Source: a virus
Lineage: Duplodnaviria; Heunggongvirae; Uroviricota; Caudoviricetes
IMG/VR virus record: IMGVR_UViG_3300044712_000823
Coordinates: 64,001-88,710 of that record
DNA length: 24,710 bases
Strand: one strand, 5' to 3'
The first letter of the stretch is position 1. Each line of letters begins with the position of its first letter. Positions 233 through 23,454 of the stretch are shown here, piece by piece. A model generated the notes under the pieces. The model ran no database searches. It was not told the origin of the DNA and saw only the letters and a list, made by a program, of their open reading frames with translations. The position numbers and the translations under genes were made by a program.

Positions 233-859
233 TCATGCTCCTAGTATATGTAGGGCATGTTCATAATGTTTTATGCGATCATCTAAGCCAATAGTACCAC
301 CATTGATCTTCTTTGTCAGTGTAACAATATCTCCTTTGTCTGCCCACTGATTAAGATTATTTGATTCCCAGAACCAACATGCTGATTGTGATGCACCTTC
401 GAAGGTTTGCATGTATTCTGCGGCTTCTTCTGGTGTAATTTCCAATGATGCAGCGAACCAGGTATAGTTTTGTTTACCTGTAACTTGTATTAGTCCTCTG
501 CCGCGATATCTGTAACCGTCACCGGATGCTTCATCACCGTTTCCCATTCTGTTAGCATAAACGCGATTAGCTATGGCTTCAGCTTTGTTTGGCTTTGAGC
601 AATATTGATTTGCCAACTCATCTGTCGGGAAGTATTTCGGGAATATCTTACGCAACGTGGCAGGTTTGTAATTTAAATTTTCAGAAAGAAAAATAAATTC
701 ACCAGATTCATGGGCACATTGAGCCATGAAAGCTGCGATTCTTTGTGGGGTATTGATTTCATAATCTGTCAATAAAATGCTCAGAGCATGATGCCATTGA
801 TCGATATATGGATTTTTCGGTAGAAGCTGTTTTAATTGTTGTTTTGTCAGTTCCGTCAT
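233..859 (-). CDS. Glycoside hydrolase family 19 (chitinase-like) endolysin
   Basis: Motifs AAFMAQCAHESG, YRGRGLIQVTGKQNY and TKKINGGTIGLDDR. Start moved to ATG 859 (MTELTKQQL), which overlaps the upstream stop as ATGA. Confidence 0.93.
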   Translation of the reverse strand: MTELTKQQLKQLLPKNPYIDQWHHALSILLTDYEINTPQRIAAFMAQCAHESGEFIFLSENLNYKPATLRKIFPKYFPTDELANQYCSKPNKAEAIANRVYANRMGNGDEASGDGYRYRGRGLIQVTGKQNYTWFAASLEITPEEAAEYMQTFEGASQSACWFWESNNLNQWADKGDIVTLTKKINGGTIGLDDRIKHYEHALHILGA

Positions 860-1119
860 TTCACACTTTCGAATATACGTTTTTGTTTCTGATACCATTC
901 ATTCCAAGCATCATTTTTCAAAGCACATTCGTAGTATGTAGAATAATTTTTATTAATAATATATGCAATATCACTTAATTTTGCATTATCATTTAATTTA
1001 TCCAAATCTGGGCATCGTTCAGTGTATTTAGGTGGTTCTGGAAATTTAACTGTAATGGGAACAGTTGTGCATCCAGAAAGTAAAACCATAGATAGTAAAA
1101 ACAGAAATTTATTTTTCAT
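856..1119 (-). CDS. Outer-membrane lipoprotein, o-spanin (Rz1-like)
   Basis: Signal peptide with lipobox LLSGC, Pro-rich segment PITVKFPEPP, further Cys residues; lies between the i-spanin candidate and the endolysin. Confidence 0.8.
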   Translation of the reverse strand: MKNKFLFLLSMVLLSGCTTVPITVKFPEPPKYTERCPDLDKLNDNAKLSDIAYIINKNYSTYYECALKNDAWNEWYQKQKRIFESVK

Positions 1120-1543
1120 GTTTAGTCGCCTGATTATGTGCGTCTACAAATTCTTTTGGAACTACACATTGATTATCATATTTGACAACTTCACGATCAA
1201 TATATTCTTTAACTACAATTTGTTTTTCTACTATCTTAGCTTTCTCTTTTACAATTTTTGTTTCTATTTGTGTATTAACAACCTGTGCAGCTTCTTGCGC
1301 CTTTACAACTTTTTCTTCCAATTCTCTTACTTTTTCTAACCAAGAATTGTTGTTCCAGTTTGCACCACAAATAAAAACACCAATCGAAATTACAAGTATA
1401 GATGTAATTTGAATTGGTGTCTTATAGAGATAAATTGATGGTATTGGGATGTAACGAATTAGATATGTGGCTAAGAGTCCCAATAGACCCATGATTGGAA
1501 TAAGATAAATGAACCAATCAGGGACCAATCTCAAAAGCCACAT
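1109..1543 (-). CDS. Inner-membrane i-spanin (Rz-like)
   Basis: Hydrophobic N-terminal helices, predicted coiled coil (LEKVRELEEKVVKAQE), C-terminal Cys (QCVVPKEFV); overlaps the lipoprotein gene. Confidence 0.78.
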   Translation of the reverse strand: MWLLRLVPDWFIYLIPIMGLLGLLATYLIRYIPIPSIYLYKTPIQITSILVISIGVFICGANWNNNSWLEKVRELEEKVVKAQEAAQVVNTQIETKIVKEKAKIVEKQIVVKEYIDREVVKYDNQCVVPKEFVDAHNQATKHEK

Positions 1544-1550
1544 ATTAAAC

Positions 1551-1742
1551 TCACATTTTAGGTGAAACTCTGTGTGACATTGGTTGCACTACAACATTGC
1601 GTTTACGTTTTGGGTAAACACCAGGTTCACCACCTTTACCACCAGTGCCTGCAATTCCACCTGTGCTTACGGCATTAGATGGTCCAGGAACTGCGGCTCC
1701 TCCACCCATACCATCTTCTCTCAATTGTTTGAATGTTTTCAT
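1551..1742 (-). CDS. Small Gly-rich/basic protein with capsid-targeting-like N-terminus
   Basis: Start moved to ATG 1742 (ATGA overlap). Begins MKTFKQLRE, close to T4 IPI MKTFKEF and IPII/III MKTYQEFIAE. Confidence 0.75.
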   Translation of the reverse strand: MKTFKQLREDGMGGGAAVPGPSNAVSTGGIAGTGGKGGEPGVYPKRKRNVVVQPMSHRVSPKM

Positions 1743-2125
1743 ATCTGTTCCAGTATACATGCCACATTCGAATCAATAGGTATTTCGGAAGAATTTATAT
1801 CTTTTCCTTTTATACCTTTAACCTTCTCTGGCATATAGTTGAGGTAAATCAAAAATGTTTTCAGAACATCGTAGTCCTGTTCGTCAATTTTGAAGAATAA
1901 AATTCTCGTAGCATGTTCTACACCAAAGACATTATAGACTAATATAAGATGATTTAAAATTAATCTCTCTTTAAGAGATTTGGTGACCTTATATCTACGA
2001 AACAATCTTTTTAAATATTTCGTTCTTTTAAGGTCACCCTCAAATTCTGACATTATGCAATGAGGTGAAGTATAAGCCTTTACTGCATACATCAAAAAAT
2101 TTTCATCAGTCAAATCATCAAACAT
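1739..2125 (-). CDS. Conserved hypothetical protein of T4-like marine/freshwater phages
   Basis: Operon-packed ORF; motif KYLKRLFRRY...ERLILNHLILVYNVFG recalled from cyanophage-type hypotheticals. Confidence 0.8.
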   Translation of the reverse strand: MFDDLTDENFLMYAVKAYTSPHCIMSEFEGDLKRTKYLKRLFRRYKVTKSLKERLILNHLILVYNVFGVEHATRILFFKIDEQDYDVLKTFLIYLNYMPEKVKGIKGKDINSSEIPIDSNVACILEQI

Positions 2126-2130
2126 TATTT

Positions 2131-2607
2131 TTATTTCGGTTGTCTAGGATCTAGATCGCCTCTTTCAATTTTATTTTCAGCAGATTCGCCGCCTGGCATT
2201 TCACCATCGTCAGTGATTAAGCCTGTGCAATGATAGAAACCGTGTTCATCAATTTTGTATGTGAAATTGAAGTACAATTCTCTTTCATCGTCCGCGCCCG
2301 GAGAAGTAATTTTTCCGTCTAGTGTTGCACCAAAGATGCCACCAAATGGACGCAAAACAAATATCTCTGATCCATTTTTTAAATCAGGAAAAATTGCTCT
2401 AGGTAATTCTAATCCATAGTTGCGTAAAACTTTAGCAGCTTTTACCCATCCAGCATAAGGATTCACAAAATCTTGGGCCAAAACAGCAGCAAGATTCCTG
2501 TTGGCTTCAAGACGGGTTTCCGGCTTTGCCAGATCCGCCTTAGTGAAGTCAACAGAAACTACTGTTGCAGGACCACCTTCGGTTAGATAGTCTTTAAATT
2601 TCAACAT
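2131..2607 (-). CDS. Hypothetical protein with capsid-targeting-like N-terminus
   Basis: Begins MLKFKDYLTE; packed 7 nt and 5 nt from its neighbours. Confidence 0.75.
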   Translation of the reverse strand: MLKFKDYLTEGGPATVVSVDFTKADLAKPETRLEANRNLAAVLAQDFVNPYAGWVKAAKVLRNYGLELPRAIFPDLKNGSEIFVLRPFGGIFGATLDGKITSPGADDERELYFNFTYKIDEHGFYHCTGLITDDGEMPGGESAENKIERGDLDPRQPK

Positions 2608-2614
2608 GATTCAA

Positions 2615-3295
2615 TTAAGTAATAGTGATTGTGTTGTTTTGTGATGTTGCGGTAACGCCTTGATCTGCGGCGGTCACAATGACACGGTATCTGTTTGTTG
2701 TGTTTGCAGTTGTGGCTGGCTTCACATACAGAGTAGAAGTTGTGGCACCAGCGAACTGAATGTTTGCAGTGTTTGCTGGAATGTTTGCCCAACCATATGA
2801 ACCGGTCGAATTGTTGTATTGCCACTGATATGTCAATGTTGCAGCAGTATTTCCAACCAATGTAGGTGTTACAGTAAATGTTGCTACGTTTGCGAAAGAA
2901 GCATTCGAAACAACTGATGTGTCGCCAGAAGTGACCAACGTAATAGTTACGTTAGGATATTGTTGACCATCACCATCTGGACCATTAATAGTATTTAAAG
3001 CCACTAAAACTTCATGCGTAACGCGACCTGCACGACCACCTGAGCCTGTCGTTCTCAATACCCAACCGGCGTGAGGTGCATGTGTGGCCAAAGCTTCTTG
3101 TGCATCGACACCAAAAAGACCAATTGTGGCACCTTGTGTGTATACATTGGCGGATGTATTTCCGTACAACAATGCAACGTTAGCTGCTGTCGGCGCGGCA
3201 ACGTTAGCTTCTGTTTGTACATTGTTCATAATCGTTGAATTCACAGCCCAGTATGGTGCGTTGGCTGCGTTATCGAATTTACCCCATGAGGACAT
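2615..3295 (-). CDS. Virion structural protein with C-terminal Ig-like domain (head decoration or fibre-like)
   Basis: Thr/Ala/Asn-rich. C-terminal TLTYQWQ...GATTSTLYV...YRVIVT pattern typical of phage Ig-like domains. SD AAGGAG at 3304-3309 and a late-promoter-like site upstream. Confidence 0.72.
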   Translation of the reverse strand: MSSWGKFDNAANAPYWAVNSTIMNNVQTEANVAAPTAANVALLYGNTSANVYTQGATIGLFGVDAQEALATHAPHAGWVLRTTGSGGRAGRVTHEVLVALNTINGPDGDGQQYPNVTITLVTSGDTSVVSNASFANVATFTVTPTLVGNTAATLTYQWQYNNSTGSYGWANIPANTANIQFAGATTSTLYVKPATTANTTNRYRVIVTAADQGVTATSQNNTITIT

Positions 3296-3319
3296 TTTTG
3301 TTTCTCCTTAGAAAGAATC

Positions 3320-3334
3320 TATTTACTATTTATT
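3320..3334 (-). promoter_or_regulatory. T4-type late promoter-like site (AATAAATA followed by GTAAATA)
   Basis: 7/8 match to TATAAATA at 3327-3334, overlapping the upstream stop codon, about 30 nt before a structural gene. Confidence 0.6.
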
Positions 3335-4763
3335 AATTGCTAGGTTTAGCACTATTTGGACGAGTTTTCAACATAGGCTCAATTTCCACAGTATCACGGG
3401 GTTGTCCTGTCATAGTGGTTCCACCTTTAACAACAATTTTTGCATTAGGCTTGTCGTCCTTTTCCCAATCATACGTTGTCTCTTTAATTTTATTTTTATA
3501 AAGAGATTTAATCATACGTGCCGATTTCATCTGTTTATTGCGATGCGCCGATTCCATTGCTTTCACGGAATTTGTTGCAGAAAGAGGCGAATCTTCTATT
3601 CCGCCGATGCCCTCTTGAACATTTTCTGGCACACAATTTGGAACAGTTCTGGAACCCTTTTTCTTTGTTCCTACCATTTGGTAGCCTTTCCAGCAAGGAT
3701 CAGCACCCTTCATTTTCTTTTCTTCGCGTGTGATATGGTCATCAATTTCCATGTTGTCTGGCATTTTTTTCAACTCAGACATAACACGCGCCTTGGATTC
3801 TGCACTTGAAGCCCCTAAATGTCTTTTAGTTGACTTTCTGTATTTCTGTAGTGCAGTGTTGAGTGATTTGGATGAACTACGTTTCGAAGCAGCATCACCT
3901 TGTTTACTCAACTTTTCGGCATCCGCTCTAGCTTTTGTTGCGTAACTAGTTAGAGTTGCTTTTTTCAATTCATCAATCTGTTCAAATTCTTCAGAAATCT
4001 TTACGATAGCATCATATTGCGCCATCGACAAAGTTCCATCTTTACGCATATTGATTAGATTCTCTACAACTTTGTGTAAGTCCATATCAGTCTTTGCATC
4101 TTCACGCGCATATTCAAGAACACGAATAAGTAAAGGAATATCCATTGTCACGGTGTCTTTTTCATCCAGTTCTTCTTTGAGCTTTTTGGCTTTCTTTTTC
4201 ACTGGTTCACTACTACCCGTTTCTTCATTCCAATCGTCGCCACGTTCACCCATTCCAGAAGTTTCTTCTAAAGGATCAACTTCTTCTTGTTTGACGGTAC
4301 CGTGTTTTTGTTTGAAGATTTTGAATTCACTTGAACGTGCATAAGCATGTTTTTGATTTCCATCCATTGTCAAAGGATTCAGACCCTTTGCTTTGATGTA
4401 AGTCATCAACAAACCGGTTCCAGCCTCATCCAAACTCTCAACTTCTTCTGTCGTTGGTGACTGAACTTTTACTACTCCTCTTTCCATATGCGCTTGTTTG
4501 TAATGCTTAAATGCATTCGAACGTGCATACTTGGAACGTTGTGCAAAAGACATAATCTTTGGATTGTAACCAAGAGATTTGATATATGAGAACAGCCAAG
4601 AGTCTTCTTCCAGTGTTTCAACTTCTTCGTTTTTCACTGGAGAATTATACTTAGCCGACCATGGTTCCATTGGATCATCGAATGGTGAATCACCAAGTTT
4701 GCCCATTACGGACTCCTTCTTGGTCTTCACCAACAATTTGACTAGTTTACCGGCGTTGCTCAT
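3333..4763 (-). CDS. Modular charged protein, putative internal-head polyprotein
   Basis: SD GAGGA. Basic modules separated by acidic E-x-x-[LIV]-[DE]-E linkers; two ~45 aa internal repeats; DPCWKGY...VPNCVP module. Confidence 0.75.
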   Translation of the reverse strand: MSNAGKLVKLLVKTKKESVMGKLGDSPFDDPMEPWSAKYNSPVKNEEVETLEEDSWLFSYIKSLGYNPKIMSFAQRSKYARSNAFKHYKQAHMERGVVKVQSPTTEEVESLDEAGTGLLMTYIKAKGLNPLTMDGNQKHAYARSSEFKIFKQKHGTVKQEEVDPLEETSGMGERGDDWNEETGSSEPVKKKAKKLKEELDEKDTVTMDIPLLIRVLEYAREDAKTDMDLHKVVENLINMRKDGTLSMAQYDAIVKISEEFEQIDELKKATLTSYATKARADAEKLSKQGDAASKRSSSKSLNTALQKYRKSTKRHLGASSAESKARVMSELKKMPDNMEIDDHITREEKKMKGADPCWKGYQMVGTKKKGSRTVPNCVPENVQEGIGGIEDSPLSATNSVKAMESAHRNKQMKSARMIKSLYKNKIKETTYDWEKDDKPNAKIVVKGGTTMTGQPRDTVEIEPMLKTRPNSAKPSN

Positions 4764-4765
4764 GC

Positions 4766-5704
4766 TTATTCCTCTTTAGCAGCCTTTGTAGCTGTAGCAT
4801 ACATTACTGATTTTGCTCTATCGCCATAACGTGCTTTGAAACCTGCTGTATCTTTTTTCATACCTTTAACGATGCGTTCTTTTTCAGCAGTTTCGCCGGC
4901 AGACAATGCTCGTTCTTCAAGTTGCTCAACACCTTCGGATGTAAGTTTTGCGCCAACATTTCTTTCATGTGCGCCTTGTAGTGCATCCATGTCTTTCTTA
5001 GCTTTTTCTTTTGTTTCAGCAGGCTTTTTAGCCATCTTTTCCATCTTTTTACCGATATAAGACTTGACAGTAGATTTCTTCAGTTCATCAAGTCGCTCGA
5101 TTGCAGACATTGTATCCTCTACAATCTGATCGATCAACAGTGGTTCATAATCCGTTTCTTCTTTACGTAGTTTAGCAAGAACTGCGCCGGCAACCTTTTT
5201 ACCAGTTTCAGTTGAACCGTAACGTGCTGCTGCACCTTTAGCGATTTTCTTGAACATTTTGCCTGGCTTACCAATATCTTTACCGGCAGCGGCAGCTTTA
5301 GCGGAATAAGAAGCTTCGTCTACTTGTTCAATATCTTCTTTAACTTTTTTCTTCTTGTCATCAGCGTCATCATGTTCTGGTTTTTCTTTTTGTTTAGAAC
5401 CACCATAACGTGAGCCTTGTTTGATACCAGAGCCGCCCGATGGTTGTGGACCAGAACGCTCCCTAGAGGCTCTTAACATGTCCTCCCAGCCTTCTTCAAC
5501 TTTCTCCGAATCTTCTTTTACGGCTTTCTTTTCACCGCGAAGCATTTTAAAGTCTTGTGCATCAAGTTTGTTGTTCTTGTTTTTATCAAGAACTTTTTGG
5601 TTGCCTTTTAGTTCTTCCATTTTAGCTTGAGTTTTAGCCTCAAGCATAGGCTTAACTAAGTCAGCGATAGGATCTTTTTGTGTGAATACGTTTTTGTTGA
5701 ACAT
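4766..5704 (-). CDS. Modular Lys/Glu-rich protein, putative internal-head polyprotein with EF-hand-like loop
   Basis: SD AAGGGG. Linkers EQVDE, ERLDE, EQLEE; loop DKNKNNKLDAQDF. Confidence 0.75.
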   Translation of the reverse strand: MFNKNVFTQKDPIADLVKPMLEAKTQAKMEELKGNQKVLDKNKNNKLDAQDFKMLRGEKKAVKEDSEKVEEGWEDMLRASRERSGPQPSGGSGIKQGSRYGGSKQKEKPEHDDADDKKKKVKEDIEQVDEASYSAKAAAAGKDIGKPGKMFKKIAKGAAARYGSTETGKKVAGAVLAKLRKEETDYEPLLIDQIVEDTMSAIERLDELKKSTVKSYIGKKMEKMAKKPAETKEKAKKDMDALQGAHERNVGAKLTSEGVEQLEERALSAGETAEKERIVKGMKKDTAGFKARYGDRAKSVMYATATKAAKEE

Positions 5705-5717
5705 TTTTTACCCCTTA

Positions 5718-6002
5718 TTAGCAATTCCAACGTCTTAGAGCTTTATTGATTGGTGAATCAGGATCACGTGCGTTTTTGGTCGACGTTAATCTCTTTTTCA
5801 TACCAGACATTCTTGAGCAAAAACTTTTACGTCTTGATGCTCGTTTACCTTTTGGATTCTTTTCGGTTACAGCAGTTTGCAGTTTTGAACCTGGATTCTC
5901 ACGGCGATAAGCATTGACAGCCTTTTGACTCAGACCATCTGTCTTGTCTTTTCTATTTACATCCTGCCAATCTTCTCCCAAAAATTCTTTAAAAGATTTC
6001 AT
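5718..6002 (-). CDS. Small, highly basic two-Cys protein (recalled as DUF6321-like) with capsid-targeting-like N-terminus
   Basis: Begins MKSFKEFLGE; motif RRKSFCSRM...DPDSPINKALRRWNC; ATGA overlap with the upstream gene. Confidence 0.8.
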   Translation of the reverse strand: MKSFKEFLGEDWQDVNRKDKTDGLSQKAVNAYRRENPGSKLQTAVTEKNPKGKRASRRKSFCSRMSGMKKRLTSTKNARDPDSPINKALRRWNC

Positions 6003-8053
6003 TTCTTTTTCTTCTTGTTTGAAACCATATTTACGGTTTTATCTAACATCGATTCGGGTGGCTCTTTGTTGGAAGGGCCATGATATCCACCAGTAACACC
6101 CATATCTACGCTGGGTGAATCAATTGACTCTTTTCTGAATTTAGAAAATGATTTGCGCGTTACCTCTGTGGTACTACCGTATTTATTCTCTGTCTGTTCT
6201 CTATATGTAACATTTCCAAGTCCAGACATTGGATACACTGTACCTGAACCGCGAGTATCATACTCGGGTGAAACACCAGCCGGCTTAATTACTTTACCTG
6301 CTTCGGCTGGGCTGGTTTTTTGCTTTTTGGCTTTGATTTTGTCGTTGTCTTGCTGGAACCTGGTTTCTTTTGGCTCTGGTTTGACTTCAATGCTGGGGCT
6401 TGTTTCTTCGTGGTACGTGCGGAAGGTGTACTTTGTGTTTGAGGCAATGTCTCCGTCGGTAACTGAATCTGCTCTTCCTGCTTTGGCTGTGAGTTGGCAG
6501 GCTGGACAGATGTTGTCAACGAGTTTGAATCGCTTGTAAGTGCCGCTCTTTTTGTCGGTCCGTCCAGTGGGTGCGGTTTTGTCTCCACAGGAGCAGTCTG
6601 CTCCTTCGGCATGAATAGTCTGGCTAGCGTCTTGAACATCATCTTTCTCCTCGAATCTTAAACGATTTCTTAATGTTTCTATTGATTTTTGAATATCAGC
6701 ATTTTGTTGCTGTTTCTTCTTGCGTAAATTTTGAATTTCTCTTTGCACCATACCTTCACGGTTTCTTTTACCGTATGCAGTCATTGGTGTATTCTGTGTA
6801 CGATTGACAACTTGTTCAAATAATCTATCGACAATCATACCTTTATTGTTCTTAAACATCCATTTATCAACAATTTCATTTTGAATCGGAATATCAAAGA
6901 ACCAATTTGACATTTCGTGTATGATTGCAATATCTTCTTCTTTTTGTGCAATCTCAAAATCATTAGCTTCTTTTAAATCCAATGAATTGTCGAATTCCAA
7001 ATATTTGTTGAATCGTGAATTGAAATCTTCTGTTATTTTTTGAGCAATTTCCCAACGCTCTTGTCTAACAGATTCTGCCATCATCTTTTCACGACCTTCA
7101 TTTCTCTTTTTCGAAGAATCGTTTGTAGTGTTGACGAAGATCATCATTGTTTCATAGCCAAGTTCTTCCAACTCGTTTTTAATTTCAACAATGTTAAATT
7201 GCTCATTCGTCGTTCCATTAATAATCAATGGCTTTCTATTACGAATAGCTTCTCGTCTGAAGTCTTTAGATTGCTCATGCAATTTATGTTTATCATTCAG
7301 AATATTGATTGCAAGAGTCGGGTTCATTTCTGTGGCAGTTTTTTCCGACACAGCTTCACGAATAATAATGTCTTTACCTGAACCAGGTCCACCGCAAATG
7401 AATAATGCTTTGAATAAGCCATGGTTTACATCTTCATGTATACCCATACCTTTTCGCACATCTCTAAAAAGCTCTCTTGCGTGTTTTTCAGGAAGGTGTT
7501 CAGGAACACCTTTTTTGAAGCTATGAAAATCATTATTTGTTGCATGTTCACGCATTTTTGAAGCCGACATACCCTCAACGCCTTCGGAATCCGGATCTCT
7601 CTGACCAGCAGATTTTAGTTCGATTTTCTTGAAGTTGAAAAGAGCTTTTGGATTTTTATCTTTAGTCCCATTATAATCGTGCAACTTTTTTTCATACTCA
7701 GGAATTCGATCTGATCCTGCAACCATAACCAAGTGGTCGTGTCCAGCCGCATTTAGCCTAGCTGCATGTTGCAAAAATGTCGGCATCTCTTTGCTAGACA
7801 CTTCTATGTTAGTATTCGGGAAAAAACGTTTAGCGTGTTTTAGCTTAGTCTTGGCATCGAGTGGATTTTTATTCGCGTCAACAGAATGTGAAATTATAAC
7901 ATGATGTGGAGCCTTGTAATCTCTTGCAATTTCTTTGACTCTATTTACAAGTTTTTCGTGTCCAACTGTCGGCGGATTCATTCGCCCAAAGGCCATCACC
8001 ACTGGGTTTTTGGTCTGCTGATCTTCTTGAACTTTTTGGAGAAATTTTTTCAT
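5999..8053 (-). CDS. HIGH-superfamily (cytidylyltransferase-like) nucleotidyltransferase fused to a P-loop kinase-like domain and a charged tail
   Basis: FGRMNPPTVGH (HIGH equivalent), VAGSDR and MSASKMR (KMSKS equivalent); then KALFICGGPGSGKD (Walker A) near 7372-7395; begins MKKFLQKVQE. Confidence 0.85.
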   Translation of the reverse strand: MKKFLQKVQEDQQTKNPVVMAFGRMNPPTVGHEKLVNRVKEIARDYKAPHHVIISHSVDANKNPLDAKTKLKHAKRFFPNTNIEVSSKEMPTFLQHAARLNAAGHDHLVMVAGSDRIPEYEKKLHDYNGTKDKNPKALFNFKKIELKSAGQRDPDSEGVEGMSASKMREHATNNDFHSFKKGVPEHLPEKHARELFRDVRKGMGIHEDVNHGLFKALFICGGPGSGKDIIIREAVSEKTATEMNPTLAINILNDKHKLHEQSKDFRREAIRNRKPLIINGTTNEQFNIVEIKNELEELGYETMMIFVNTTNDSSKKRNEGREKMMAESVRQERWEIAQKITEDFNSRFNKYLEFDNSLDLKEANDFEIAQKEEDIAIIHEMSNWFFDIPIQNEIVDKWMFKNNKGMIVDRLFEQVVNRTQNTPMTAYGKRNREGMVQREIQNLRKKKQQQNADIQKSIETLRNRLRFEEKDDVQDASQTIHAEGADCSCGDKTAPTGRTDKKSGTYKRFKLVDNICPACQLTAKAGRADSVTDGDIASNTKYTFRTYHEETSPSIEVKPEPKETRFQQDNDKIKAKKQKTSPAEAGKVIKPAGVSPEYDTRGSGTVYPMSGLGNVTYREQTENKYGSTTEVTRKSFSKFRKESIDSPSVDMGVTGGYHGPSNKEPPESMLDKTVNMVSNKKKKK
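6289..6639 (-). CDS. Nested out-of-frame Pro/Lys/Gln-rich protein inside the 684-aa gene
   Basis: SD GAGGAG at 6647-6652, 7 nt before ATG 6639. Amphipathic start MFKTLARLF, then HPLDG and a Lys-rich tail; frame differs from the host ORF. Confidence 0.6.
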   Translation of the reverse strand: MFKTLARLFMPKEQTAPVETKPHPLDGPTKRAALTSDSNSLTTSVQPANSQPKQEEQIQLPTETLPQTQSTPSARTTKKQAPALKSNQSQKKPGSSKTTTKSKPKSKKPAQPKQVK

Positions 8054-9243
8054 ATGTTTCTTATTCCGGCAAAATTTCTTTTAGAGAATTCGCTTCTATT
8101 TACAAACTTATCTGATTCTTTTCCATGGTGGAAAACGTAGCCTTCTGGATTAGCTGCTTCACCACCATGTTCATGTTTAAATTCTTGATGTTGATTCATC
8201 ACATTAATCAACACATTTTTAGCTCTTTGCAAGTGGTTATGTAGTTTGAATAAATTGTTGTAATGTTTCTTATTGCGTTCAATTTTATCCAATTCATCAG
8301 ACAATTCTTTTTGCTTCGCATTTCTATTCTTTTCCACCTTTAGCTTGTCAATCTGCTTATTTTTGGTGGTCTCCAACCATCTCTTGAAATTTTGGTGATT
8401 GGGTGCCTCGTCACTCCTTACGGTGTGATTGATATATGTTTCCAATGAACCACCGACACCTTGGTGTGCTTTGGTTCCAGCATACATATCATCACCATGT
8501 GTGTCATGCATTTGTTTAGCTGCCGTTATATGTTTTTGAAACTCTGCGCGATCTTTAGGTCCAAAATGCACCTTTGAAGTGTCCATTCTAGGATCCACGG
8601 AGAAAACATCAGGATGTGGTTTAAAATTTTCATGGTCAACTTCATGTGACGCATTTAAACTTGATGAATCTTTACCAGTATATGACAAGTGTGTAACTAC
8701 ACCAATCTTTGCTTTCTTGGCTCTAGAGCCGTGAGCACCACTTGCGGTGTATGTTATACCAGAAGGGTTCGGACGGAAAGAAGTACCCTCTTTGGTATTT
8801 TTTTTATCGTCGTCCGTGAACATCATATCACCTTGATAAACACCTTTTTCAGGTGCAACTTTTGGTAAGTGTTTCAATGCAGACTTCAACTTTTCAACAA
8901 GACCAGGTGCGTGACCATGGTTCTTCTCAATGTCCGCAGGAGTGTAATTTATTTTTGGTGTCTTATTGAATGCAGACTTTGAAGCAACAAAAAACTTTCC
9001 TGTTTCTGGATGATGACCATAGACAATCGCTGGTGAACCATCGTATTTTGTTGTCAGTTCTGAAGTTTTTTTACCCTGCTTAACATGTTCAGCAGCGGTT
9101 TCCAATGAAGAAAGCGCATGTTTTACACCCTTCTCACCGGCTTGGAGAGGGCGATCTTCTATATGCGTCAGGTGTTTAATTTGCCTGCTGGCGCCTTCTT
9201 CTGGGTCAGTTTGTTCTTTTAGGTACTGTGAAAACGGTTTCAT
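8050..9243 (-). CDS. ATP-dependent ligase-superfamily (RNA ligase-like) nucleotidyltransferase (recalled as DUF6267-like)
   Basis: Motif I TTKYDGS (K66), III YQGDMMF, IV PEGYVF, V DKFVNR; SD AGAGGA; begins MKPFSQYLKE. Confidence 0.8.
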   Translation of the reverse strand: MKPFSQYLKEQTDPEEGASRQIKHLTHIEDRPLQAGEKGVKHALSSLETAAEHVKQGKKTSELTTKYDGSPAIVYGHHPETGKFFVASKSAFNKTPKINYTPADIEKNHGHAPGLVEKLKSALKHLPKVAPEKGVYQGDMMFTDDDKKNTKEGTSFRPNPSGITYTASGAHGSRAKKAKIGVVTHLSYTGKDSSSLNASHEVDHENFKPHPDVFSVDPRMDTSKVHFGPKDRAEFQKHITAAKQMHDTHGDDMYAGTKAHQGVGGSLETYINHTVRSDEAPNHQNFKRWLETTKNKQIDKLKVEKNRNAKQKELSDELDKIERNKKHYNNLFKLHNHLQRAKNVLINVMNQHQEFKHEHGGEAANPEGYVFHHGKESDKFVNRSEFSKRNFAGIRNI

Positions 9244-9278
9244 TAAAATCCTCTGGAATAGTACACTATGACTATCTT

Positions 9279-10010
9279 TTATTTATAACCCCAAATTTTG
9301 GTATCAACCCAAACGTCCATATCTTCACGTATTAATGAGTGTTTCCCTATGTTAAATTTACCATCAACAAAAGGATGATTAATATCTATTCTCTCAAAAC
9401 TAATACCGAAGTGTTTTAAGTTCGCTTCTAGCATTGCATGACCACATAAAGAAACTCCTCTAGCAGCATGCCATCGCAAAAACAGATACGTGGAAGCGTA
9501 AATATCCATCGTTTCCGGATCAGCAATTGCGAATTGATCGTTCAGTAAAGAATTTTCATCGTCTGTGTCCTTCGAAACGTAAATTTTACCCTTCTCCAAG
9601 CTTGAAAAATCGATAACTTTATTTAAAGCTAGATCAAATCTACTTCTGACAATGAAGTCATATTTTACTGAATTGAAATTTTGATATTTTATTCTTAGAT
9701 TATTCGTTAGATAAATCGAATAAAACATTGATGTGCAAAAATTTGCTGGATGTGAAGCATTAGGAACAAATAGATCCGAATTTATATCCTCAGGCAAATT
9801 CTCATCTAAGATAAAATTTACTGGTCGATACAGATTAAAGATGCCATCATAAAGTGCAAACTTTGAGTGTTTTGGTCTCCAAGTGTGCGCGAAAACATCA
9901 ACATCATATCGATTCAGTAAATTAGCTTTTACATATTCGTGTGCTTTTCTGTAACTACGCGCTTGGCCCGAAAGGCACAGTGCAATTCTCGTCGATGAAT
10001 TGATTGACAT
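9279..10010 (-). CDS. Putative glycosyltransferase-like protein, paralog of 10437-11153
   Basis: RIALCLSGQAR, DVDVFAHTW, YDFIVRSRFDL and NDQFAIA align with the paralog. Start uncertain: ATG 10010 or ACG 9992. Confidence 0.65.
   Translation of the reverse strand: MSINSSTRIALCLSGQARSYRKAHEYVKANLLNRYDVDVFAHTWRPKHSKFALYDGIFNLYRPVNFILDENLPEDINSDLFVPNASHPANFCTSMFYSIYLTNNLRIKYQNFNSVKYDFIVRSRFDLALNKVIDFSSLEKGKIYVSKDTDDENSLLNDQFAIADPETMDIYASTYLFLRWHAARGVSLCGHAMLEANLKHFGISFERIDINHPFVDGKFNIGKHSLIREDMDVWVDTKIWGYK
9280..9287 (-). promoter_or_regulatory. T4 late promoter TATAAATA
   Basis: Exact consensus, overlapping the upstream stop codon, 36 nt before ATG 9243. Confidence 0.8.
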
Positions 10011-10440
10011 ACTTTGTACAAACTCCAGATATATTTTTGCAATTCTTGGTCCATTGCCACCAGTCATCTCTTGCCTCAGGTTGAACAGCAATCGAATTCC
10101 AAGTTAACTCTTTTCCGGGGTAAGTCCATATGTAGTTACTTGAGGTTAAAGTGAAATCATCGTTTTGATGCCAAAAATATTCATAAGGAAGTCCACTTGT
10201 GCTGAGTGACAAAAGTGCGTCCAAGTTTTTACAGTGTAGCCAGAGTCCCTGTTGCTGTAAAAACGTTTCACTAACTTCATAGTCTGGGCGATCATGTCCC
10301 AGAAACCATTTGTCTTTTATTCTCCAAACATCAATTTCACAATCAAATCCCTTTGCTAAAGCAGATTCAATTTGCTGTGGACGATTTTCCAAATTTACGT
10401 CTGGTCCATCAATCAGACCTCTATGTGCAATAAGTATCAT
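9955..10440 (-). CDS. Short glycerophosphodiester phosphodiesterase (GDPD)-like protein, BcbG-like
   Basis: IAHRG...ENRP...GFDCEIDVW catalytic and metal-binding motifs of the GDPD family. Confidence 0.8.
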   Translation of the reverse strand: MILIAHRGLIDGPDVNLENRPQQIESALAKGFDCEIDVWRIKDKWFLGHDRPDYEVSETFLQQQGLWLHCKNLDALLSLSTSGLPYEYFWHQNDDFTLTSSNYIWTYPGKELTWNSIAVQPEARDDWWQWTKNCKNISGVCTKYVNQFIDENCTVPFGPSA

Positions 10441-11153
10441 TGATAAAGACTCTTATGTTTATATTCACCCAAAGGGGTGTGCATGATTGTTTTATCTACC
10501 ATAAATTCTTGCCAAGGTAAACCAAGTCTCTTAATGAAATGTTCCGAAATAACATGTGGACACAAAAGACCTGTCTCCTGATATAGGAATGGAAGATGAT
10601 ATAAAACCTTACAGAATAAACTCATGGTGAAAAAGTTTCCAACCTGGATCATATCCGAGGTACCTTGACCCATATGGTTTCTGTAACCCAAAGTATAAAA
10701 CTTTTGAGGATCAAATTCAGGTAATTCTTCATTGAAGAACAAATCTGGTCTCATACGTATTATAAGATCATATGTCTGTCCTGTCAACATCATATAATCC
10801 TCTAACATAGTCATACCACGACCTACTTTAAACCACATGGAAATTTGGTTTTTTGGCACATGATATGAATTGGTAAATGCTTTTGCACGTTCACTAAAGT
10901 TTTGTTCAAAGGTTTCATACATATCGAAACGCATTTGCCGAACAGGAGTGTACACCTGAGACACTTTACCAAAATCAATCTTAGGACCACCTTCAGTGAT
11001 ACCTCGCTGTGAATGTGGGTCCCAATATGCTTCAGAATCCCACGTTTCAATAAACACATCAGCATCGTATTTGTCGATGATGTGTTTTCGTGTGTTAGGA
11101 GCAACTTGCTCCCAGCACCTCATATGACCAGTTAATAATAGTGCTACTTTCAT
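10437..11153 (-). CDS. Putative glycosyltransferase-like protein
   Basis: KVALLLTGHMR, DADVFIETW, YDLIIRMRPDL and SDMIQVG; lies within the sugar-modification operon. Confidence 0.65.
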   Translation of the reverse strand: MKVALLLTGHMRCWEQVAPNTRKHIIDKYDADVFIETWDSEAYWDPHSQRGITEGGPKIDFGKVSQVYTPVRQMRFDMYETFEQNFSERAKAFTNSYHVPKNQISMWFKVGRGMTMLEDYMMLTGQTYDLIIRMRPDLFFNEELPEFDPQKFYTLGYRNHMGQGTSDMIQVGNFFTMSLFCKVLYHLPFLYQETGLLCPHVISEHFIKRLGLPWQEFMVDKTIMHTPLGEYKHKSLYQ

Positions 11154-11821
11154 TTTCTTTTTGCAACCCAGAATCTACGCATACCACCACCATCATTGCG
11201 ATTATAATTTTCACGTTCCGCATCACCCGTTACAACCCAATCGTAACGATGAATACCATCATTTAAATCCGCATCATCATAACGTTTAAATTCGAAGCCG
11301 TTATCTTCAAAAACTTTTTCAACATATGATGCACTAGGTCTTGTTGCGATCTTTTTATCATTGATAGCTTGATCGTAACCATCAGGATCAATAACCTTAG
11401 CTTCAAAAATCTTATTAGTGTCAGCAATTTCGCTTTCTAAAATAATCAGATCAGTATGTTTCAATGCACATTCCAAATCTTGCTTCCAATTATCCAGGTG
11501 ATACATTACGCCAAAGTGAATAACAATATCAAATTTACGGTTGAGATTCCATTCATTTTCTTGGTCAAGCTGAAAGACTTCAGAACCTGGATTGTTTTCT
11601 TGTATATTTTGAATGTGTTCCACACGACCCTCAGTGAAGGTTACGTTTGCACCACGATTCTCTTTGAAGTGCTTACCAATGTCACCGAAACCACATGCAA
11701 GCTCAAGAATAGATTTGCCTTTGAAAAAGTCTTCACCAAAAATCTGTTCGATTTTTTTTATTCTGACTGGCCTCCATGATCTGTAGTGATCCATGAATTT
11801 GCTATTTTCTTCTCTTTTCAT
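11150..11821 (-). CDS. Class I SAM-dependent methyltransferase
   Basis: SAM motif ILELACGFGDIG and FDIVIHFGVMYHL. Start moved to ATG 11821 (ATGA overlap). Confidence 0.88.
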   Translation of the reverse strand: MKREENSKFMDHYRSWRPVRIKKIEQIFGEDFFKGKSILELACGFGDIGKHFKENRGANVTFTEGRVEHIQNIQENNPGSEVFQLDQENEWNLNRKFDIVIHFGVMYHLDNWKQDLECALKHTDLIILESEIADTNKIFEAKVIDPDGYDQAINDKKIATRPSASYVEKVFEDNGFEFKRYDDADLNDGIHRYDWVVTGDAERENYNRNDGGGMRRFWVAKRK

Positions 11822-13188
11822 TTGTGGTGTTCCAAGTAGTGATTCAAATCTTCTGGTGTACCCAAGCCCCACATACGTTCAATATTTTTTACACGAATCT
11901 TTTTCCCATCTTGAATTGCTTCATTGAAAACTGGGCAGACATAGAATTCGTTATTGACGCGAATGTTTTTAGAAATCATTTGTTCTGCATACTTGACATA
12001 ATCTTTACCATGTTTCCAGTAATAGATGCCGACTGTAGCAATATTTGAAATGGGTTTCTTTTCTGCAACTTCGGAAACAAAACCATTTTCATCTAGTTTT
12101 GCGAATGACCATTTTGGATGTGTAGATTCGAACGTAACAATACCACCATCGATCATGTCCGCAGTGAAAGCATACAGACACTCGTTTGAATTCCATTCAA
12201 CGAATTGGTCGGAGTTTGCCATCAGTAGTGGCTCATCATTATCAATAAATTGTTTAGCCAGCAGCGTGGTGCAAGCTGCACCCTCGGTCAAACCGTCTAC
12301 CTGAACAATGTCACAACCAGGCGCAATCAGATTTAGCACAGACTGTAAATTATATTTTTCATAATGTTCTTTTTGAACAATGAAAACAAAATGTGCATCT
12401 ACATTCAAGTTATCCACTACAATTTGAATCATTGGCTTTCCATTAACTTCAATTAGTGGCTTCGGGAAAGTATAGCCTGCTTGAGCGAATCTTGAGCCTG
12501 CTCCAGCCATAGGAATCAAAACATTCATTTTTTTATTTCTCCATGGAATCTTTTTTTGGTTGCCTGCATTAACATGTTCTTTGCAGAAATTAATAAAATC
12601 GGTGAACTTTAAATCATATGCATCTTTTACTGGATACAAATTTGCTCCAGAGTTGATTGCACCTTCACGACCAATGTGCGAATCTTCTACAATGATTGTG
12701 TCTTTTGGTAATGCTTTAAGTTTGACCATGCATTGCCAATACATTTCTGGGAATGGCTTCGTGTTAAACACATCTTCATTGCTGACAAAGTAATCGACAT
12801 AATCCATGGCACCACTTGACAACAAAGCAATCTTGATCGTTTCGCGTATACTATTTGAAGCAACAGCAATTTTCCATCCATCACTTTTAAGTGATGACAT
12901 AGAAAATAAAACATCTCTATTGTAGTATGCATTTGGAATTAACTTGAATGTAGCTTCTTGTTTGTCTTTCCAAACTTGGTCATATGTACTAACAGGAAGA
13001 CCTTTTTCTTCCGTCAGCATCTTTAATTTCTTTGTTGTGTTTAGGCCATCATATTTGCTCAGATGTTCCTCACGTGTGATAACATATTTTTCATCAACTT
13101 TACGTAAAGCATCATTTAATGCATCATAATGCAATTCACGTGAATCAAGAATCACACCATCTAAATCAAAAATAACTAACTTATTCAT
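11818..13188 (-). CDS. HAD phosphatase fused to a sugar-nucleotidyltransferase-like domain (BcbE-like)
   Basis: HAD motifs FDLDGV, VASNS, KPFP and IVEDS; then LIPMAGAGSRF...FPKPLI, ANSDQ and GIYYWK. Start moved to ATG 13188. Confidence 0.9.
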   Translation of the reverse strand: MNKLVIFDLDGVILDSRELHYDALNDALRKVDEKYVITREEHLSKYDGLNTTKKLKMLTEEKGLPVSTYDQVWKDKQEATFKLIPNAYYNRDVLFSMSSLKSDGWKIAVASNSIRETIKIALLSSGAMDYVDYFVSNEDVFNTKPFPEMYWQCMVKLKALPKDTIIVEDSHIGREGAINSGANLYPVKDAYDLKFTDFINFCKEHVNAGNQKKIPWRNKKMNVLIPMAGAGSRFAQAGYTFPKPLIEVNGKPMIQIVVDNLNVDAHFVFIVQKEHYEKYNLQSVLNLIAPGCDIVQVDGLTEGAACTTLLAKQFIDNDEPLLMANSDQFVEWNSNECLYAFTADMIDGGIVTFESTHPKWSFAKLDENGFVSEVAEKKPISNIATVGIYYWKHGKDYVKYAEQMISKNIRVNNEFYVCPVFNEAIQDGKKIRVKNIERMWGLGTPEDLNHYLEHHK

Positions 13189-14011
13189 GTTTATTGAACT
13201 TTCTAAGAATAGAACGAACTTCTTCCATTGGTGCATTTGGATCCATTTTATGCAATTCGAACATATCAGGATTATAGAAGTATGACATCAACAATAGACC
13301 TTGATCGTCATCAACAAGACCATTTTGCATCAATGTTTTCAATGAAGATTGCATACTATCTTTAAGTGTAGCCCATTGTTCTTTTTGTCCAACAAAAACG
13401 CCACCAATAATATAGACAATGTTATTCAGAACTGCAATCGTAACATCAGCAGTTGAGTTGCGGAGATTAGGCTCACGGTAGTTGAAATAGTGCATCAAAC
13501 CTGGAGTGAAATCATATTCCCACTTTTTGCTTTGTGGAATATGTTCATCATCACGGCAATAACCGAAATCGACCCATGCAGCCCACTCATTCGTGATTAA
13601 CCCACGTTCATATGCATCATGCACATAGAATGCTTTTAGAGAAGTTACACCAACATAATCTTTCGACCAATATTCTGGATTACGAACTTGATACGGATTG
13701 ATTCTCTTAATGAAGTTTGGATCTTTTTGGATTCTCTCAATATTCTCACGCAAATCTTTATGAATGTTGAAATAGTCATATTCAACAACTTTAATTTTTG
13801 GTGAAATTTTTGAAATCTTTTCTGTGAGATCAGGAGAAGTGTAAACAATTATTTCAGCATCGATTTCACACATTCGTGCAAAATGATCGAAATATTTCTC
13901 GTTTGATCTTTCAAGATAGTGAGGAAGTGGCCCGCCATTCTTTTCAAGTTGTGTCGTCCAATCGCCACGACCAATATCATAGAAAGCGGTCACAATAGAA
14001 ATTTTGCTCAT
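13181..14011 (-). CDS. HtrL/YibB (WlaTC-like) family putative glycosyltransferase
   Basis: SIVTAFYDIGRG.W, RS..KY...F, AAWVDFG, GGVFVG and DDDQ motifs recalled for this family. ATG 14011 has a GGGA SD. Confidence 0.75.
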   Translation of the reverse strand: MSKISIVTAFYDIGRGDWTTQLEKNGGPLPHYLERSNEKYFDHFARMCEIDAEIIVYTSPDLTEKISKISPKIKVVEYDYFNIHKDLRENIERIQKDPNFIKRINPYQVRNPEYWSKDYVGVTSLKAFYVHDAYERGLITNEWAAWVDFGYCRDDEHIPQSKKWEYDFTPGLMHYFNYREPNLRNSTADVTIAVLNNIVYIIGGVFVGQKEQWATLKDSMQSSLKTLMQNGLVDDDQGLLLMSYFYNPDMFELHKMDPNAPMEEVRSILRKFNKHE

Positions 14012-14035
14012 TTTCAAAGTCCCATAGTTATAAAA

Positions 14036-14920
14036 TTATATTTTGTAAGTGAAGTATTTAGGTGAAGTGCCTGTATTAGTGTCCGATTTGACAGAAAATT
14101 GGAATTTTTCCATATAAAATTCCATCCATTCAGGAACTCTATCATATTGGTGTACAATAGTGAAAGGTTTGCCTTCAGAATTATATACGATTCCGTCCTT
14201 CATGTAAGGACGATTTTCCAATAAATAAGGACCAAACTGTTCCATTTGGTCCGGCTTATTAGTTACGTGTGCATTTACTGCCCATGCGTCAGACAATCTC
14301 ATTTTGATTGCTACGTCACTCCATGGTTTATATCCAAGTAACATATTATATGCAGCTTGATCTGCCACCCAATCGGGACGATTTAGTGACATTTGATATA
14401 AGTGAAAACACAAGTCTTTAATGTATTCTGTAGTGCCTGCAAGAATACCGACGTTGTAAACATCATTCTTCATCACATTCTTATAGAAGTAGTGTCCGAA
14501 GTTTTTGATGATGTTATCACGATTCCAAGCTTCATGTTCAATCTTAATTGATTCAGATTGTGCAATGATTCCTTTGTCTTTGCTACCAAAAACTTTTTGC
14601 AGATATTCGCTTGGGTTTTTCTGAAAAATTACATCACGTACATCAGTAGTGATTACATAACGATACAGTTCACCATATAGATCCAAGTAATTGTAAACAT
14701 GCAAGAAACGAAGCATGTGAATCATTTCATTATTCGGATTTGTCGCCTTAATTACATTCACTCCAGCACGTTCAATTTGTTCGATTGTGTGGTTGTCAAC
14801 ATTAATTGCAACTAAAGCAATTTCCCCATCAAAGCCTGATTCCTTAATCGAATTGATCCAAGGCTTCAACAAATCAAATTCATAATTCGTGAAAGCACCA
14901 ATAATTAAATCTTTCGCCAT
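14036..14920 (-). CDS. GT-A fold nucleotide-diphospho-sugar transferase-like protein
   Basis: YVITTDVRDVIFQ, YNVGILAG, DQAAYN and IVHQYDR. Confidence 0.7.
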   Translation of the reverse strand: MAKDLIIGAFTNYEFDLLKPWINSIKESGFDGEIALVAINVDNHTIEQIERAGVNVIKATNPNNEMIHMLRFLHVYNYLDLYGELYRYVITTDVRDVIFQKNPSEYLQKVFGSKDKGIIAQSESIKIEHEAWNRDNIIKNFGHYFYKNVMKNDVYNVGILAGTTEYIKDLCFHLYQMSLNRPDWVADQAAYNMLLGYKPWSDVAIKMRLSDAWAVNAHVTNKPDQMEQFGPYLLENRPYMKDGIVYNSEGKPFTIVHQYDRVPEWMEFYMEKFQFSVKSDTNTGTSPKYFTYKI

Positions 14921-15630
14921 GGGTATTCTCCATTCATTTTATTTTTCATCATTTCATTACCCTTAATGAAGAAGCTATCTTGTACCGAATCGACTCGGCT
15001 TGCTACACGATAGTTTACACTATATTGACCATTGGTGTCAAATTTTTTGAAGTTGTGCATCATAAAAGGTGATAGAATCCTATCAACTTCCGGTTGTTCA
15101 TTTGGATGTCTTGCGCGGCGATACCAATATGGTGAAAAACCAATCGCAGCATTTCTTGGAATCATAAAACAATTCACATCAATGAATTTATCACCCAGCA
15201 CAGAATCCCATTTGCCCAATGATTCACAATCGTCGTTGCAAATGTATTGTCCGTCCTGAGATACAATTCTCCTCAATGAATATGCCCATTCATTTCCTTG
15301 TCGAATGAGTTCAACCAAAGATTCGATATGTGTATTTTCATACCAATTATCTTCATCGAGGAAACAAAGAAAATCACCATCAACTAGATATGAATATGCT
15401 GCGTAAATTCGATGGCCGTTATAACCACTGTGACCAGTATTATAAGGAACATTTACGATGTTAGTTTGGAAATCTTGTAGAATGTCGTGAACAAATCTTG
15501 TCTTTTCAGGTTTATCTACAACAACAATGTGTTCGAAGTTTTTATAAGTTTGTTTTTGAACCGATTTTGCTGCATCATATACTTGGCGATCACCTGTTGT
15601 AGGTGTAATCACCGTCACTTTTGGATTCAT
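14905..15630 (-). CDS. Glycosyltransferase family 2
   Basis: KVTVITPT, QKQTYKNFEHIVVVD and LCFLDEDNWY (DxD). Confidence 0.9.
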   Translation of the reverse strand: MNPKVTVITPTTGDRQVYDAAKSVQKQTYKNFEHIVVVDKPEKTRFVHDILQDFQTNIVNVPYNTGHSGYNGHRIYAAYSYLVDGDFLCFLDEDNWYENTHIESLVELIRQGNEWAYSLRRIVSQDGQYICNDDCESLGKWDSVLGDKFIDVNCFMIPRNAAIGFSPYWYRRARHPNEQPEVDRILSPFMMHNFKKFDTNGQYSVNYRVASRVDSVQDSFFIKGNEMMKNKMNGEYPWRKI

Positions 15631-15631
15631 A

Positions 15632-15913
15632 TTAACTCCGAGTTATTTTTAAGATTCTTTCAATCTGTTTTTCGATTGCTGGTTTTCTGTTTGGCCAATA
15701 TATGTATTCTTTGTCGGCCGTCTTTAAAAGCTTTGTCAGAAAAGGCACAATTAGTTTTTCAACTTCTGCAAGCTTTGCTTTATATGCTTCTGCGGTATCA
15801 GTAGCATCATTGATAACTTTCGAATATTCATCCTCAGAAACGGCTGAAAACCCGAAATCATTATCATCATCAAATTCTTTGAGAATTTTTTGTATATCTA
15901 AGTCTAGTGGCAT
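15632..15913 (-). CDS. Conserved hypothetical protein
   Basis: Operon-packed 93 aa ORF with DFGFSAV and KEYIYWPNR motifs. Confidence 0.75.
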   Translation of the reverse strand: MPLDLDIQKILKEFDDDNDFGFSAVSEDEYSKVINDATDTAEAYKAKLAEVEKLIVPFLTKLLKTADKEYIYWPNRKPAIEKQIERILKITRS

Positions 15914-15920
15914 TTTTTAA

Positions 15921-16715: not shown

Positions 16716-16734
16716 TCTAAGTCCTAAATGAAAT

Positions 16735-16742
16735 TATTTATA
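16735..16742 (-). promoter_or_regulatory. T4 late promoter TATAAATA
   Basis: Exact consensus overlapping the gp41 stop codon, 19 nt before ATG 16715. Confidence 0.78.
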
Positions 16743-23449: not shown

Positions 23450-23454
23450 ACAAA

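Follow-up and report, generated by a model that had tools for sequence, protein, structure and literature searches.

The question raised by this locus is whether a run of otherwise dissimilar phage genes shares a short N-terminal leader that marks the products for loading into the virus head. The locus lies in a window of 24,710 nucleotides (positions 64,001 to 88,710 of the IMG/VR virus record IMGVR_UViG_3300044712_000823), which is the final 24.7 kb of an 88.7-kb virus fragment with an estimated completeness of 53%. The closest named relatives are marine T4-like myophages, namely cyanomyophages, Pelagibacter phage HTVC008M and Methylophilales phage Melnitz (Kyanoviridae). All genes of interest are on the minus strand, and the gene order of the window is DNA polymerase, UvsX, a gp41-type helicase, a 264-aa gene, a sugar-nucleotide/glycosyltransferase/methyltransferase cluster, the leader block (9243 to 1551), spanins and lysozyme (Table 1). 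The leader resembles the capsid-targeting sequence found on T4's internal proteins (IPs) IPI, IPII and IPIII (Mullaney and Black 1996; reviewed in PMC9026906 and PMC3012670), and the block is interpreted here as probably a cargo block with head-targeting leaders of the T4 type.

A shared leader at the starts of five block genes

Five minus-strand genes, starting at 9243, 8053, 6002, 2607 and 1742, open with M-(K/L)-x-F-x-x-(F/Y/K)-(L/V)-x-E just as the original prediction had claimed, and all five are inside nine consecutive genes. The whole 88.7-kb contig was scanned with the regular expression M..[FY].{2,3}[LIVM].E on ATG-started frames of at least 50 aa, which gave seven frames, namely the five block genes and two that start at Met codons inside NrdB and inside a 294-aa gene. 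A looser scan with GTG and TTG starts added solely internal or antisense frames. The expectation that such N-termini would be enriched in a scan, and restricted to the block, was borne out: five matches were observed against 0.46 expected from shuffled N-terminal residues (Poisson p = 1e-4), and the leader was present in 5/9 block genes against 0/139 others (Fisher p = 2e-7), with no leader start in any replication, sugar or lysis gene of the contig. The feature is thus real and non-random. The four block genes without it encode two Lys-rich modular proteins, a protein with a weak 'head protein' family match and a DUF7207 protein. The leader codons differ among the five genes, so it is the peptide that is constrained rather than a repeat in the DNA. 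On this ground the idea that the gene starts carry a repeat or a recombination cassette at the nucleotide level was rejected. Three of the five starts are translationally coupled, and that of the 684-aa gene overlaps the stop codon of the gene upstream. For the 63-aa gene the start at 1742 was preferred over a longer open reading frame (ORF) beginning at 1760, because its ATG shares bases with the stop codon before it (ATGA) and the homologue in relatives begins with MKTFKQFMLE.

The likeness to the T4 capsid-targeting sequence, also part of the original prediction, is evident in the T4 record, where ipII and ipIII start with MKTYQEFIAE and ipI with MKTFKEF. In IPIII it is mainly residues 4 and 7 that direct targeting, and residues 8 and 10 that govern processing (Mullaney and Black, summarised in PMC9026906). 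The leader agrees with the sequence of IPII, IPIII and IPI at these critical positions, and three of the five genes have all four of them (aromatic at 4 and 7, Leu or Ile at 8, Glu at 10). The same residues are conserved within families. In 80 of 80 close relatives of the 397-aa DUF6267 protein the leader keeps F4, F/Y7, L/I8 and E10 and varies in positions 2, 3, 5, 6 and 9. Among 64 leader-bearing DUF6267 representatives with no more than 50% mutual identity, selected by a pattern that left position 7 free, this position is F or Y in 61. The family of the 158-aa protein comprises just 32 clusters in 5.8 billion proteins, all starting with M[LKI]xF.xY[LI]xE followed by GG, and F4, Y7, L/I8 and E10 are kept in 32/32 of these clusters with position 9 free.

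The leader is a separable module, as documented by its presence and absence within DUF6267, its occurrence in unrelated families and a structural model. DUF6267 representatives start with the leader in 61/150 cases and directly at the domain in 12/150, as in S-PM2 and S-SM1. The five leader proteins are spread over different families (DUF6267; a cytidylyltransferase-like domain with a P-loop kinase; DUF6321; and two proteins without family). In the AlphaFold2 (AF2) model of the 397-aa protein (predicted local distance difference test score 93.8), residues 1-20 are of low confidence and outside the fold, the leader appearing as a low-confidence helix (residues 4-11) followed by a disordered linker to the fold.

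Two block-carrying relatives, on contigs of 166 kb and 177 kb that are 99% and 100% complete, have DUF6267 proteins 76-87% identical to that of the window. In the 166-kb relative, five of seven pattern matches among 236 ORFs are consecutive block genes including a 445-aa gene, and in the 177-kb relative the two clear leader matches are the DUF6267 and transferase genes. Melnitz, with a DUF6267 protein only ~30% identical, has five leader-bearing genes in a syntenic block.

Virion proteins and putative protease sites in related phages

Proteins of the corresponding S-SM1 block, taken from the GenBank record, can be compared with published virion proteomics. In purified S-SM1 virions the putative cytidylyltransferase T4-GC190 gave 25 peptide counts (Sullivan et al. 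2010, PMC3037559 Table S8), and the table also lists GC1453, GC1454, GC1455, GC425 and GC426. The genes listed are neighbours after gp41 and mazG in the S-SM1 record. SSM1_190 (GC190) begins with MKKFSAFLNE and shares 39% identity with the transferase domain of the window's 684-aa protein, which is encoded at the same position after gp41, and SSM1_192 (GC1455), with 7 counts, begins with MLSFKELQE. The leaderless DUF6267 gene of S-SM1 (GC71) is not among the table rows examined. The virion of S-CREM2 likewise contains a cytidylyltransferase and adjacent gene products (PMC10665884). In their accessible parts, the papers on T4-GC190 (PMC3037559, PMC10665884) record its presence in virions without a targeting leader or mechanism.

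A Peptidase_S77 (gp21) gene is present in both block-carrying relatives and in Melnitz. In the two relatives, and in these two alone, a T4_CASP (gp22) scaffold gene was found, and it adjoins the Peptidase_S77 gene. The maturation site of T4 gp23, L-T-E/A (residue 65; here the slash marks the cut in T4), aligns with L-N-E/A, L-N-E/T and L-T-E/T in the two relatives and S-SM1, and this aligned L-x-E suggests that the specificity of the prohead protease is conserved. DUF6321 is found in relatives either alone behind the leader (F-L-E-E-S/AAW) or as the end of larger proteins behind acidic junctions (EEVD-L-E-E-T/AAW and EEVEQ-I-D-E-A-T/PAW); in every case, after the leader and inside the fusions, [LI]-x-E stands ahead of the domain. 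The two leaderless Lys-rich proteins contain six linkers of the form EEVE-x-L-x-E in total, and those of the 476-aa protein delimit two tandem modules of ~55 aa. Across three genomes (~136,000 residues), further linker matches were two in the gp22 scaffold of each relative and one stray. The gp22 protein of T4, which is degraded, is the textbook example of a gp21 substrate cut at many sites. From the linker in gp22 we infer that the leaderless Lys-rich proteins are probably substrates of the prohead protease as well.

Predicted cargo enzymes and the explanations weighed

The two largest leader-bearing proteins appear to be enzymes. Neither the 397-aa nor the 684-aa protein gave a useful sequence match to solved structures. 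In an alignment of 74 DUF6267 sequences K66 and E367-G368 are invariant, and D68, G69 and K379 are conserved in at least 90%. By sequence, K66-x-D68-G69 corresponds to ligase motif I, and E367-G368 and K379 are read here as equivalents of motifs IV and V. The best nine VIA-align matches of the DUF6267 model are RNA ligases or DNA ligase (Z 8.6-6.8, 170-207 aligned residues, root-mean-square deviation ~4 Å), with the Naegleria Rnl5-type enzyme, Trl1, REL1, T4 Rnl2 and archaeal Rnl3 among the matches. The best 30 Foldseek matches were all ligases with weak E-values (at least 0.047), and VIA-align and the sequence motifs were relied on for this reason. The model is consistent, with moderate strength, with an RNA-ligase-type nucleotidyltransferase fold, and carries a large helical insertion. 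DUF6267 thus resembles the ATP-dependent RNA ligases Rnl2, Rnl5 and Trl1 in predicted fold, at moderate fold scores, and in the K-x-D-G motif with its invariant Lys.

The 684-aa protein consists of an HxGH nucleotidyltransferase, a P-loop kinase and a long basic tail, in this order, with the motifs TVGH (H32 invariant), SASKMR (S163 and R168 conserved) and GGPGSGKD. The best Foldseek match of its AF2 model is NadR (1lw7, E = 9e-7), an NMN adenylyltransferase with ribosylnicotinamide kinase activity, and covers both domains; PPAT, NadD and PNKP follow. By motifs and model the protein is a predicted NadR-like HxGH nucleotidyltransferase with a P-loop kinase, sharing with NadR the domain order, the fold and both motifs. 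In S-PM2 and in phrog_455, DUF6267 and the transferase form a single polypeptide, an arrangement that argues for a common pathway. The S-PM2 fusion has no leader, whereas in the window the transferase is fused to the kinase and the long tail. Salvage of nicotinamide adenine dinucleotide (NAD+) and repair of RNA are offered as roles of the two enzymes as hypotheses only.

The explanation held to be probable is that the leader M-(K/L)-x-F-x-x-(F/Y)-(L/I)-x-E, of 9-10 residues, is a capsid-targeting propeptide of the T4 type borne by a block of cargo genes, and that the leader-bearing proteins are probably loaded into the virion and may be injected together with the DNA. The block would be transcribed late, from T4-type late-promoter-like sites. 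During prohead assembly each leader would attach its protein to the scaffolding core, and a gp21-type prohead protease would then cut after the Glu of (L/I)-x-E and free the mature protein inside the head. The mature proteins would stay with the packaged DNA and probably be ejected into the host with it. The putative cargo consists of the RNA-ligase-fold DUF6267 protein, the NadR-like enzyme, the basic DUF6321 protein, the 158-aa protein and the 63-aa Gly-rich protein; the two leaderless Lys-rich proteins would probably be core or internal proteins cut by the same protease at their EEVE-x-L-x-E linkers. The term cargo locus, under which the block had originally been described, fits in that the leader is modular and restricted to the block and that leader proteins of S-SM1 are in virions, and it does not extend to the 4/9 block genes that are leaderless.

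Several observations weigh against head loading by the leader. That of the 684-aa protein has K at position 7, hence no aromatic residue, and V at position 8, and the 63-aa protein has a 9-residue variant where relatives have the 10-residue form. A family search of the window's own 53%-complete contig found no prohead protease, and the scaffold and capsid genes are not on it either, for which reason the machinery was assigned via the relatives. The linker expression was written from the Lys-rich block proteins, so that its matches in the contig, solely in the 312-aa and 476-aa proteins, are there by construction and only the gp22 matches are independent. The promoter-like octamer TATAAATA occurs exactly in the window twice against 1.5 expected, which is not above chance, and its count was rejected as evidence. 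In S-SM1 the canonical leader is missing from the virion proteins GC1453 and GC1454, and the leader is thus not the sole way into the particle. The S-PM2 proteome, a shallow one, did not contain the leaderless homologue of that phage, a result that is weak either way. For ejection with the DNA and leader cleavage after Glu, no data on any marine T4-like phage were found in the searchable papers.

A different outcome of the same targeting is that the leader directs to the prohead parts of the core, the scaffold or a DNA-condensing apparatus, or enzymes of the packaged DNA, which are retained or degraded and not delivered as effectors. The mostly basic character of the block proteins (pI 9-10.7, the 158-aa protein being acidic) is that of DNA-associated internal proteins, and the Lys-rich proteins share their linker motif with the gp22 scaffold, which is degraded in T4. 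This is nevertheless considered unlikely: leader proteins of the syntenic S-SM1 block are in mature virions and hence not cleared in the manner of a scaffold, every examined T4 protein loaded via the sequence, including large foreign enzymes, was delivered into the cell (PMC9026906), and ligase-fold and NadR-like enzymes need nucleotide substrates that a packed head does not supply.

The shared N-terminus might also serve late genes in another way, in translation initiation, in recognition by a chaperone or an assembly partner (tail, baseplate), or as a signal for degradation or regulation. Highly expressed phage genes often have AT-rich codons (AAA, TTT) behind the ATG, and the translational coupling of three of the five starts also speaks for such a reading. 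What is conserved, however, is F4, F/Y7, L/I8 and E10 and not the codon composition, the codons at these positions differing between genes; the other late or structural genes of the contig and of the two complete relatives lack the leader; and the pattern matches the T4 sequence as well as the L-x-E specificity suggested by the gp23 site. Such a purpose is accordingly rated very unlikely. That the similarity is functionless, arising by chance or as a remnant of gene duplication with paralogous N-termini, is hardly credible. The motif is short and an opening M-K is common, but the excess and clustering of the matches given above, the lack of a common fold or family among the leader proteins, and the retention of the motif across hundreds of divergent homologues, in Melnitz and in S-SM1, all speak against it.

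Head loading by a T4-type leader can be extended to a more far-reaching proposal, which is put forward tentatively and is itself doubtful. Marine T4-like phages of the pelagiphage, methylophage and cyanophage types might routinely pre-load a functionally linked kit of ligase-fold and NadR-like enzymes via the leader, inject it with the DNA and have it act before any phage gene is expressed, and the Lys-rich neighbours might be polyproteins cut by the prohead protease at EEVE-x-L-x-E into small DNA-bound modules. An injected kit of this kind might rebuild NAD+ or repair cleaved RNA against host defences that deplete NAD or cut tRNA.

Compared with IPI, IPII and IPIII of T4, the window has the same 10-residue leader with aromatic residues at 4 and 7, L/I at 8 and E10 (MKTYQEFIAE against MKSFKEFLGE), carried in both by otherwise unrelated, mostly basic and fast-changing proteins. 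A gp21-type protease and a gp22 scaffold are found in both lineages, and ipII and ipIII of T4 are beside the lysozyme gene e as the block is beside spanin and lysozyme genes. Pfam and PHROG scans of the five leader proteins gave no match to a T4 internal-protein family, and as judged by sequence none of the mature proteins is a homologue of IPI, IPII or IPIII. The putative cargo would include enzymes of 44 and 78 kDa and not small proteins alone, the genes form one operon-like block after gp41 with polyprotein-like neighbours, and the phage is a marine Kyanoviridae-like relative of T4 known from sequence and not a member of the Straboviridae. The proposed cargo may also be likened to T4 Alt, a packaged and injected ADP-ribosyltransferase, which is an enzyme in the head, is cut by gp21 after Glu (ITE-6, LTE-619) and is delivered with the DNA; Alt differs in having a distinct 6-residue propeptide. 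Fusions of the T4 capsid-targeting sequence to beta-galactosidase, green fluorescent protein or nuclease are artificial, whereas here natural enzymes bear an IP-type leader.

No published description of a link between leader and virion loading in marine phages, or of a DUF6267 leader, was found, subscription journals being outside the coverage; the one Nucleic Acids Research 2026 paper that matched the literature search concerns T4 IPI only. The proposed mechanism is already known from T4; the differences lie in the lineage of the phage, in enzymes as natural cargo, in the operon-like block and in neighbours that resemble polyproteins. If the proposed head loading is true, the head-loading tag of T4 is not peculiar to T-even coliphages but an ancient portable label shared with abundant marine T4-like phages, and it naturally carries sizeable enzymes beyond small anti-restriction proteins. 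It would then explain the 'cytidylyltransferase' and its neighbours in cyanophage virion proteomes, and would provide a simple sequence rule predicting packaged, possibly injected, proteins in genomes of uncultured phages. The ligase-like DUF6267 and NadR-like enzymes would be candidate first-minute effectors against host defences, and a transfer of T4 leader-based protein delivery technology to marine phage-host systems is suggested.

Features of the window and neighbouring genes

Table 1. Positions of the block genes, promoter-like octamers and neighbouring genes in the window
Feature	Position	Strand	Leader (position)	Remarks
264-aa gene, between helicase and sugar island	15921-16715	-		No Pfam match
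TATAAATA, T4-type late-promoter-like octamer heading the block	9280-9287	-		Exact; 36 nt before ATG at 9243
397-aa DUF6267 protein	8050-9243	-	MKPFSQYLKE (9214-9243)	Pfam DUF6267 E = 2e-95
684-aa nucleotidyltransferase-kinase	5999-8053	-	MKKFLQKVQE (8024-8053)	PHROG cytidyltransferase E = 3e-63
94-aa basic DUF6321 protein	5718-6002	-	MKSFKEFLGE (5973-6002)	Pfam DUF6321 E = 7e-15
312-aa Lys-rich modular protein	4766-5704	-	None	Two acidic linkers, EDIEQVDE and EGVEQLEE; pI 9.3
476-aa Lys-rich modular protein	3333-4763	-	None	Four EEVE-x-L-x-E type linkers
AATAAATA, second late-promoter-like site, ahead of 226-aa gene	3327-3334	-		AAGGAG, then ATG at 3295
226-aa protein	2615-3295	-	None	phrog_613 'head protein' E = 1e-8 (weak)
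158-aa acidic protein	2131-2607	-	MLKFKDYLTE (2578-2607)	No Pfam or PHROG match
128-aa DUF7207 protein, conserved block member	1739-2125	-	None	Pfam DUF7207 E = 1e-38
63-aa Gly-rich basic protein	1551-1742	-	MKTFKQLRE (1716-1742), 9-residue variant	Start set with the starts of relatives
i-spanin-like gene	1109-1543	-		Lysis cassette
Lipoprotein o-spanin, overlapping the i-spanin-like gene	856-1119	-		Weak LysC/Rz1-like match
Lysozyme, weakly GH19-like	233-898	-		Lysis cassette

The exact octamer that the original prediction had placed at the head of the block is present there; it overlaps the stop codon of the upstream gene and is followed by an AGAGGA ribosome-binding site. The sole other exact TATAAATA of the window is at 16735-16742 (minus strand), 20 nt upstream of the 264-aa gene.

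The block proteins show some further features. The basic low-complexity tail of the 684-aa protein (residues 362-684; window 6003-6970, minus strand) has a CxC...CxxC cluster that is possibly a zinc ribbon. The fusion of DUF6267 and transferase in S-PM2 (NC_006820, 8998-10777) is annotated as two coding sequences in different frames (p141 and p142). The match runs uninterrupted in another S-PM2 record, LN828717, so a frameshift introduced in sequencing or annotation seems to account for the split. A small Cys-containing module, C-W-K-G-Y ... V-P-N-C-V-P, occupies residues 345-380 of the 476-aa protein (window 3624-3731, minus strand) and shares 54% identity with a segment of the nucleotidyltransferase protein of Melnitz. 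Together with DUF6321 and the ~55-aa repeats, this module suggests that small modules are shuffled among block proteins.

The 226-aa protein is likely a virion (head) protein. It is tied by name, position and N-terminal likeness to two virion proteins detected by mass spectrometry, the S-PM2 p148 'head protein' GC537 and the S-SM1 S-layer protein GC425, and BLASTP found no similarity to S-SM1 and Melnitz block proteins. The 63-, 94-, 158- and 312-aa proteins were likewise not linked to these block proteins by BLASTP, and an equivalence of the unlinked proteins to GC426, GC425 or GC1454 is not claimed, position being its sole basis. The 128-aa DUF7207 protein is 48% identical to SSM1_196 (T4-GC198) of S-SM1. 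The 158-aa protein is absent from 80 related loci, matches solely unnamed viral clusters in the ESM Atlas and is a variable, lineage-restricted putative cargo. An extra leader-bearing gene directly upstream of DUF6267 is found in the 166-kb relative (445 aa, MKPFRHWLNE, locus 15692-17029, minus strand; no Pfam match) and in Melnitz (361 aa, MQGFKTFLSE, locus 7914-8999); it has no counterpart in the window.

Directly downstream of the block is the lysis cassette (window 233-1543, minus strand). The other side of the block is flanked by a sugar-modification island (9279-15630, minus strand), an insertion that separates the block from the gp41 helicase. The island encodes two DUF7796 proteins, a methyltransferase, a HAD-phosphatase/NTP-transferase fusion, an HtrL_YibB protein and a GT2 glycosyltransferase; cyanophages have mazG and 2-oxoglutarate-oxygenase genes at this position. 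The sole large plus-strand genes of the window, at 22976-24708, are two whose N-termini resemble signal peptides; one encodes 157 aa and the other, cut off by the end of the window, at least 417 aa. Outside the window, at ~42,000-47,000 of the contig, crude ORF calls look unlike those of the rest of the phage, with Arg/Ala/Gly-rich products and many GTG and TTG starts, suggesting a foreign or non-coding insert or an assembly chimera.

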